Part shown: positions 46,001 to 49,000 of the stretch, piece after piece
Layout of the letters: every line of letters begins with the position of its first letter
Position numbering within the stretch: the stretch's first letter is position 1
NCBI RefSeq assembly: GCF_018977255.1
Contig: NW_024704743.1
Span: forward strand, 19,036,001 to 19,100,000
Source: Callorhinchus milii
Taxonomy: Eukaryota
Reading direction: 5' to 3'
DNA: 64,000 nucleotides
The notes under the pieces: model-generated
Told to the model about the DNA's origin: nothing
What the model saw: only the letters and a program-made list of their open reading frames with translations
Databases searched by the model: none
Translations under genes and position numbers: made by a program

Positions 46001-49000
46001 AATTGACAACTGTGGCTAAAATAAACTAGTGTTTAGTAAATATTTAATGATGTTCATTGTTGAGTCTCATTGTGTTCTCCATGCTTCCAATGTCCTCAGT
46101 TGTATGCATTGGTTTCCTGCACTGGTGCAATAGAAAATAGTTCATTTTGCAACCAGTGAAGTCATCATAAAAACGTCAAGATAAATGCACTTCACATCAT
46201 GAAGAACACCTCCTTTAGGAATCCATGTAAATCATGTTGACCAGTAAGAAATCAGCGCCAACAAGATCAGTTCAGGGGAATAGAGTATTTGCCCTAATCA
46301 CCTAGAATTACAAAGTCACTGGATTCACCCTAAAAAACACTTTGCTGCCCGTATTCTCACCTGCACCAAACTCCGCATCCCCATTACTCTATTCCTTGCC
46401 AGGCTCCATTGGCTCCCCATCATAGAACGATCAAAACTCTGTGACTCCCTGCCTCAATCCCTTCGCATTGCCCCTCTTCAGATCGCACCTGAAGACTTTC
46501 CTCTTAGACTGTGCCTATGGTCACCTCCCCTTACTCCCTCGGTCAGTGTCAAACGACCCATTGTTCAGCACTCTGAGATGCTACTCTGTATATTAGGGCA
46601 CTATATAAATGCAAGTTGTTGTTGTATGTCGTGTTCAGGTTCAAAACATATTACCCAATTGAATCAACTCTGACAGATAACTAAACTGCACAAAGTACGC
46701 TTTAGACAATAAAAATATTGTGTGACTATTAAATGAGTTTGTTTATATCTTTTACAGTAAATTCACATTATTTCCAATAAAATCAAATTCACGATGTCTA
46801 CTAATGAATATTTGATACAGGGAAACTTTGCTATAGTGCCCTTGGCTGGATCCAGTGTCTCAACGACTATGAAGTGAGTCATGAAAAAATGGTTGATTTG
46901 CACCTTGTCAGGTTGCTGCCGATGTAACTTCCTACAAGTTGCAAGCATAGGAACACTGTGCAGGCAACAATACTAACACCGTTTTGTGTGTGCTGCACAA
47001 AACATGTGTGTAGGTGTGCAGAAAATTACATCAATGGTGACCCAGCAACCCAGAAGGCGGACATTGTTCACTGCGAGGCCTGTCAGCCCCAGTAACCTGG
47101 TGTACCACACTTCCTGTTAGGTAAAGTAAAGTCAAATCTATATAAGTAGAGGCAGTAAAGGTGAAGTGGTTGAAGGTCTATATTGAAGAACGCTACAATG
47201 GGATTTCCCAGTAATCCACTTTAGGTATAACAGAAGATTTCTTGAACTGGTGTCATTCTTTTATTTATATACTCTTCAAACATTTAAGGCATTTTCAATT
47301 CAGCCCCAGCAATATTCTTTGATCACATTTTCACCAAAGAACTGTCTACTAAACCAGTGTGACATTTTCATTTGCTGCACCAGCCATCCTGTGAAATTGA
47401 CTGTACTGCATATCTGCACTCTTTACATAAGTAAATGGTGAATGTTTTTTTATATGTGTGTTGGTGCTGTATGTACAATATGTTATTTGCAACCACTGCT
47501 TCTTAACTAAGTCTGTGCTTTGTACAAACCTGATTGTCTTGGCTTTTTTTTTATTCTTTTGCTTCATTATTGCCTTCGGTTTGCAGATGCTTTGGGTAGG
47601 TATATGACGTAAGGTTTGCTCTTTCTGTTTATGTTTGCCCTTTGGCTGGGTGCATTCTTTGCTCCTCTGTCTTCTCAGCGCTAACACCTTTGAAATCTTC
47701 TGACAGATTGGTTCCACTCATTGTACTTGAAGTGATGGACACAGTTGATCTGCAGCTCATGACATCTTTAAGACAATCAAAACTATTAAGTGCTTGGCAG
47801 GGAAGTGGGCTGCGTAATTGGCACCTTGTACTGGAAAAGTACTTTGGGAATTAATGTGTTTCCTCCAAGAAAGTCTACGTGCATCATGAAACCTCATGAG
47901 AAATGCCGCTCTGATAACATTTCAGATCAGAGCTGGAATATTATGGGTTGGTACAATGTACATGAGGTTGGTTTCCTGGAGAAGAATCGTTTGATTCTTC
48001 AGTCACTGTATACCTAACCTTTAGAACTCATTGATACTATCCATCTTTCTAGCCCCCTTTTGATCTATAATAATAATAATAATCCTTCCATTTGATATAG
48101 CGCTTTTTTGCGTCTTTTAGACATCTCAAAGCGCTTCACAGAATATATTGTAAAGTGAATTGACTGTATATTTGTGGGCGAAACACGGCACCAATTACGT
48201 ACAGCAGTGACCCACAAACAGTCGTGGATTGAATTGACCAATTTTTTAAATATAATATCCATCTGATTATTATTGTTTTTTTTCTTGATGGATTATTATC
48301 AGGCGGATGGAGTAAGGAAACTTACCAAAGATTTTGCCCTGCCAGGAATAGAACCCACGTCTCTCGCTTGCGAGGCGAGTGCTCTAACCACTGAGCTACA
48401 GGACTCTATAGGACTTTCTCAAAATCCCACTTTAAAATCTACCTTTTCATCCATGCCTAAGGTCATCTCCCTCTTCTCTCTTTCTCAATTTCCAATCCCG
48501 CCACAATGAGATGCTCTGAGATGTTATCCTATTTCAAGGGCGCTATATACATGCAATGTTGTTGTTTATGTCCCAAAAACCCATTTCTTTTTTGTTCTTC
48601 TCCTCCAAAATGTACTCCGCAGCCACCCATTACCTCCGCCCCTCTGGCCTTCACCTATCTCTGACACCACACTTTTGACCCCGCTGCCCCGGTTTCTGTC
48701 ACCTCGATCATCTCCCAAATGAAGCCCATCACCTGCTATCTTGATCCCATCCCTAGCCCTCTCCTCACCTCCCAGTTCCACCTCCTTGCAACCCTACTAA
48801 CAGACATTGTCAACCTTTCTCTGTTCACTAGCACAGCTCCCTCCCCCTTAAAAACAGCCGTCATTGCCCTCACCCTCAAAAAAACGTCCCATGACCTACC
48901 TTTCTTCTCTAACTACCGTCCCATCTCCAACCTTTCCTTTACAAGGTCCTGGAATATTGTTGCTTCCCAGCTTCACTCTTTCATCTCCTACCACTCCTTT

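Follow-up and report, generated by a model that had tools for sequence, protein, structure and literature searches.

A probable elephant shark copy of an ancient 9-nucleotide CACNB2 microexon

INTRODUCTION

Does a 9-base string inside a long intron of the elephant shark (Callorhinchus milii) CACNB2 gene form an exon and, if so, in which tissue would it be used? A preliminary description, made from the letters of a 64,000-nucleotide stretch of DNA (the whole of which we call the window), had proposed an unannotated neural microexon in the GK domain of CaV-beta2, a subunit whose pairing with the AID is textbook material. CaV-beta variation has been placed in the N-terminus, the HOOK and the C-terminus (PMC2365960, PMC12065904, available portions), and for retinal beta2 exon 7B is the only exon named in the available portions of PMC8370969.

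The 9-mer is very likely a real and ancient CACNB2 mini-exon. Our fuller reading, which we regard as probable, is that it is the elephant shark copy of an ancient 9-base CACNB2 cassette exon that would be skipped in most tissues and included in photoreceptors, where SRRM3 would drive its use; inclusion would add Asp-Ala-Leu to the GK domain of the channel subunit.

THE LOCUS AND ITS SPLICE SIGNALS

The host gene is elephant shark CACNB2, which runs across the window on the + strand. Over 164 amino acids the product of the last coding exon matches C. milii XP_007887940.1 with 100% identity, against 40-70% for eight other proteins tried. The relevant features are as follows, in window coordinates.

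40145..40164, + strand: 20-nt HOOK microexon (exon 7B type), AG/GTAAGT, called from sequence
45825..45934, + strand: upstream constitutive exon (exon 10 in the numbering of the preliminary description; RISITRV...RSSL); its splice to the exon before it is seen in record 17 of run X3
47503..47534, + strand: two candidate branch-point-like motifs, TTAAC (A at 47506, -81) and CTGAT (A at 47533, -54)
47512..47586, + strand: 3' splice region with a 73-nt AG-free zone, U-rich tract, TGC and acceptor CAG
47587..47595, + strand: 9-nt microexon, phase 1/1, inserting D-A-L into the CaV-beta2 GK domain after RSSL and before AEVQSE, called from the reading frame and the equal insert in models of bamboo shark and paddlefish
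47596..47601, + strand: microexon donor GTAGGT
52760..52911, + strand: downstream constitutive exon (AEVQSE...ISSPK; start of GK helix alpha4)

The intron that holds the microexon is 6825 nt long, of phase 1, and lies between exons 45825-45934 and 52760-52911. Within it AG-ATGCTTTGG-GTAGGT occurs at 47587-47595, with acceptor TTTGCAG (last base 47586) and consensus AG and GT on its two sides (CAG/GTAGGT). Inclusion gives RSSL-DAL-AEVQSE with the frame preserved, as had been proposed, and the branch-like motifs, the AG-free zone of about 73 nt, the U tract with TGC, the 9-mer and GTAGGT all lie where the preliminary description had put them. TGC falls at -5, -16 and -27 relative to the acceptor, with further copies at -71, -90 and -99. 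The surroundings had been called a repeat-free island; the microexon stretch has a single match in the genome (991.5 Mb searched) and sits in low-depth, single-copy bins flanked by repeats.

At 9 nt and with CAG/GTAGGT boundaries, the element lies within the range of SRRM3/4-dependent microexons (cassettes of 3-27 nt with canonical AG/GT). It also has UGC between branch point and AG, together with a distant pyrimidine tract and branch point, an arrangement that is weakly diagnostic alone. The description of such microexons in the available portions of bioRxiv 10.1101/2024.09.17.613571 fits this local architecture, UGC being not strictly required there. UGC is not rare in the host intron, and constitutive exon 10 likewise has two TGC in its final 30 nt.

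EQUIVALENT INSERTS IN OTHER VERTEBRATES

RefSeq predicted models generally rest on RNA reads, and in several vertebrates they carry three extra residues at the RSSL/AEVQ junction of CACNB2: DAL in bamboo shark and paddlefish, DVL in gecko, turtles and birds, and DVV in gar. Non-mammalian CACNB1 models have an optional DVL or DAL at the same junction. These CACNB2-DAL and CACNB1-DVL/DAL isoforms thus share the junction and the same or nearly the same residues with the elephant shark 9-mer; they differ in that the elephant shark insert appears in none of the 11 C. milii proteins and that the C. milii CACNB1 intron is without the 9-mer. The label 'unannotated' is accordingly right for C. milii and wrong for other vertebrates, whose models annotate the insert. 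The protein search that had been suggested, for RSSLDALAEVQ, found this string in RefSeq models of both paddlefish gene copies; the bamboo shark match is RSSLDALAEV. Two RefSeq predicted CACNB2 isoforms with DAL are:

Chiloscyllium plagiosum (bamboo shark): XP_043546330.1
Polyodon spathula (paddlefish): XP_041103053.1

Among the best 120 relatives, 93 were readable at the junction: 72 without insert, 17 with V, three with DAL (paddlefish) and one with DVV (gar). A query spanning the junction gave 3694 matches, the best 120 of which all carry an insert (12 DAL, 107 DVL, one DVV); no insert frequency follows from these, because the query itself selects for inserts. The 120 divide into 22 beta2 rows, from both paddlefish copies, bamboo shark (DAL), gar, gecko, leatherback turtle and birds, and 98 beta1-type rows, from teleosts, paddlefish, gar, coelacanth, lungfish, a caecilian, lizards, turtles and gharial.

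Isoform pairs within eight species (beta2 in crow, gecko, leatherback, bamboo shark, paddlefish and gar; beta1 in a lizard and a perch) differ only by the three insert residues, with no mismatches, which is the pattern expected of a cassette exon. An exon both frame-preserving and optional is therefore found, with the frame computed in elephant shark and the pairs with and without insert coming from the eight other species. When 47 bird and reptile beta2 proteins were compared with human, the sole 3-residue insertion was the DVL-type insert, present in 22 of them.

The insert is absent from the sturgeon, bowfin and newer gar CACNB2 models among those compared, and the matches listed include no cacnb2b protein from a teleost that has a 3-residue insert. 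Absence from gene models can also reflect unsampled tissue. The PDB matches listed (2 of 25 sequences) include none with the insert.

TISSUE PATTERN AND SRRM3 CONTROL

Two catalogued events are candidates for the same exon. In the available portions of PMC9303857, the chicken CACNB2 event GgaEX0029123 at chr2:19131847-19131855 (Dataset S1, RetMIC list) is 9 nt long, with PSI 94.49 in retina, 0.57 in other tissues and 4.67 in neural samples. It resembles the elephant shark element in gene and length, and bird proteins have their one optional 3-residue insert at the RSSL/AEVQ junction; the differences are that the bird residues are DVL where elephant shark has DAL, and that the tissue pattern was measured in chicken only. 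We consider it highly probable that the two are counterparts. They were paired by gene and length, and the pairing is well supported, since the 47 bird and reptile beta2 proteins show no other 3-residue insertion.

The second event is zebrafish cacnb2b DreEX0018228, also 9 nt, whose PSI in wild-type eyes is 10.9 at 60 hpf, 15.5 at 72 hpf and 60.98 at 5 dpf (PMC9303857, supplement file 11) and 0 in srrm3 mutant eyes (PMC9303857, available portions). Here the likeness is a co-orthologous gene and the length; the equivalence, drawn from gene and length only, is reasonably probable. A difference is that DreEX0018228 does not stand on the zebrafish RetMIC list of PMC9303857 as available. The word cacnb2 does not occur in the main-text passages of that paper that are available.

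The rival reading that survives best is the one first proposed, in which the exon is real and spliced and serves as a general neuronal microexon, used in brain and retina alike. We judge it unlikely. The SRRM3/4-type architecture would suit it, and so would the place of the zebrafish cacnb2b event outside the available zebrafish RetMIC list; the CACNB1 insert, moreover, appears in the annotation of a great many teleosts, as one might expect if it is used in a tissue that is often sampled. Against these points stand the chicken 9-nt exon, with the neural and retinal PSI values just given, and the absence of the insert from C. milii models. Of the neural SRRM3/4-type assignment, the SRRM3 part finds support in the srrm3 dependence of the presumed zebrafish counterpart; the likely chicken counterpart is retina-specific and not pan-neural.

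Under our preferred reading of a retinal cassette exon, the microexon is likely to be used mainly in retina, and we infer that SRRM3 would control it through the UGCs at -16 and -27. Two matches to SRRM_C (PF15230) in the elephant shark genome exceed the cut-off. Downstream TAG, the Musashi-type (MSI1) UAG, occurs once in 200 nt against 1.9 expected from the intron, so the enrichment seen in RetMICs is not found here; in the available portions of PMC9303857 that enrichment is reported as a class-level trend and not as a requirement.

A second CACNB2 microexon offers a comparison. Exon 7B is a 20-nt HOOK microexon of the retinal beta2X13 variant (PMC8370969, available portions), and 20-nt CACNB2 exons stand on the available mouse and chicken retina microexon lists of PMC9303857. 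Like the 9-nt exon it belongs to CACNB2 and lies within the elephant shark window, and it is a retina-enriched microexon in mouse and chicken; it differs in lying in the variable HOOK and being kept in mammals, whereas the 9-nt exon belongs to the conserved GK core.

SPLICING IN ELEPHANT SHARK

We think it very likely that the microexon is spliced in elephant shark. Contigs of run X3 contain the exon 9-10 splice. Among the joints listed (572 more), drawn from contigs of four runs whose tissue is not on record, covering exons 9-10, the intron and a short exon 11 anchor and swamped by repeats, there is neither a joint of exon 10, microexon and exon 11 nor a skipping joint, a result that tells neither for nor against inclusion.

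The exon could be orthologous and yet a silent relic in chimaeras. This would account for the empty count among the 11 C. milii proteins and for the want of a microexon joint among those listed, and the C. milii CACNB1 intron, which holds no matching 9-mer, indicates that loss occurs in the lineage. A relic free of selection should have decayed, however, and here the acceptor, donor, AG-free zone and DAL codons are intact, with DAL identical to that of bamboo shark and paddlefish; we think a relic very unlikely.

Run X3, which yields the spliced contigs of the gene, also has low-depth intronic contigs at window 47363-47749 and none in several other unique intron bins. This cover around the microexon may be chance.

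COMPETING DONORS

The preliminary description had noted two downstream donors, giving 13- and 22-nt exons that would frameshift. Both are present and do so; a third, giving a 27-nt exon that is in frame and contains TAA, had been missed, and all three forms end in a stop. By a crude consensus count the 22-nt donor, GAC|GTAAGG, scores equal to that of the 9-nt exon. The acceptor might then work mainly with the 22-nt (GTAAGG) or the 27-nt donor as a poison exon, nonsense-mediated decay lowering CACNB2, a role for which the equal donor score and the stop reached by every longer form would serve. The insert in orthologous models is a clean three residues, however, and the chicken and zebrafish events catalogued in the available portions of PMC9303857 are 9 nt long, so that we give the poison exon a slight chance at most.

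CHANCE EXPECTATION

Splice signals alone are not rare in the host intron: an AG-free zone of at least 73 nt precedes 12 of its 333 AGs, and the microexon acceptor ranks 14 of 329 in pyrimidine content. When the intron was shuffled, AG, a D[AV][LV] 9-mer and GT came together in 6 of 1000 shuffles, three of these with an AG-free zone of at least 40 nt, and the expected count for the exact DAL motif was 0.002. It is the coding match, not the splice signals, that exceeds chance. The 9-mer could also be a cryptic splice site that arose by chance in a U-rich part of the intron, in which comparable AG-free zones and U-rich acceptors recur about a dozen times. This reading has a negligible probability and is effectively refuted by the homologous inserts and the shuffle expectation, the peptide having been predicted before the homologues were seen and matching them.

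One other motif of AG, D[AV][LV] 9-mer and GT occurs at window 15836; an AG stands 2 nt upstream of it.

POSITION IN THE PROTEIN

By residue counting from M245 and I343, the insert lies between L296 and A297 in rat beta2a numbering. In most structures the 275-295 loop, which joins eta2 to helix alpha4, is disordered, and it forms a nanobody contact site (PMC9734117, available portions); the same source also gives 263-283 for apparently the same loop, and we assume that the 275-295 numbering matches rat beta2a. The insert would then fall where this flexible GK loop ends and helix alpha4 begins. Invertebrate orthologues vary in length at the GK loop. AID hot spots are M245, I343 and L352 (PMC12065904, available portions), and the insert site is not among the AID or actin hot spots listed in those portions.

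With L or V as its last residue, the insert would keep helix alpha4 in its L-A-E-V register. The net effect would be three more residues, one of them acidic (Asp), at the end of the loop or as an extra helical turn. As a hypothesis, what such an insert would most likely retune is not AID binding itself but a surface for a partner, or for cytoplasmic parts of alpha1, in photoreceptor CaV1.4 complexes. AlphaFold2 gave a mean pLDDT of 35.6 with the insert and 35.8 without it, too low for use.

PARALOGUES, MAMMALS AND AGE

Beta1 and beta2 rows split at 99/92 in a tree of 32 rows (rough bootstrap), which gives no root and no duplication order because the insect outgroup falls inside beta2. Given the equal position, length and D-[AV]-[LV] pattern in beta1 and beta2, the simplest account would place the origin of the microexon before the CACNB1/CACNB2 duplication.

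The elephant shark beta1-, beta3- and beta4-type introns contain no D[AV][LV] 9-mer and show no meaningful DNA similarity, and cartilaginous-fish beta1 is not represented among the listed insert-bearing matches. The CACNB1-type intron (L006, G000:C23:87800-94300) holds a long TG-rich repeat. None of 36 metagenome loci has the 9-mer; two are vertebrate-like genes of beta3/beta4 type and the rest invertebrate-like, none being beta1 or beta2.

The insert was found in none of 120 placental CACNB2 proteins and none of 13 further mammalian cluster members; mammals are likewise missing from the 120 insert-bearing matches listed, and the human and mouse retina microexon lists in the available portions of PMC9303857 contain no 9-nt CACNB2 exon. 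Mammals have likely lost the microexon, as judged from proteins only, with marsupials, monotremes and mammalian genomic DNA outside the comparison.

A wider scenario is possible, and we advance it tentatively: a splice switch in the GK core, older than the duplication, that would remodel the loop-alpha4 region in non-mammalian photoreceptors, tune CaV1.4 at ribbon synapses, and have been lost from both placental genes.

RELATION TO PUBLISHED WORK

The exon type has been catalogued in other species and would fall into a known class, that of SRRM3-type retinal microexons, the mechanism of which is already well known; new here are the chimaera copy, the sharing between beta1 and beta2, and the apparent absence from mammals. 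A literature search, with subscription papers, VastDB and bioRxiv supplements (including one study with elephant shark) outside its reach, found no paper discussing the microexon. It goes unmentioned in the available portions of PMC2365960, PMC8370969, PMC4042065 and PMC12665424, and has no row in the available supplements of PMC12626420 (12 of 13 files), PMC12626424 (12 files) and PMC13281805.

The microexon would be a case of regulated variation within the GK core that two paralogues share and that is conserved from chimaera to birds. If the retinal pattern and the mammalian loss are both true, photoreceptor CaV1.4 in zebrafish and chicken would use a beta subunit missing in mouse and human, which would bear on fish as models of CaV1.4 night blindness.

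VARIANT FORMS AT THE JUNCTION

In the invertebrate-like beta genes L011, L013-L015, L017 and L018 the flanking exons are fused, with no intron, and the loop has one residue more. An optional single Val, RSNL-V-AEVQ, stands at the junction in salmonid CACNB2 proteins (e.g. P0102 and P0120), in 34 of the 544 proteins compared; this could be a shrunken 3-nt form of the microexon, or a tandem acceptor. Coelacanth beta1 (P0516) has a longer insert, DSDVL, at the RSSL/AEVQ junction, which suggests an alternative upstream acceptor of the microexon.
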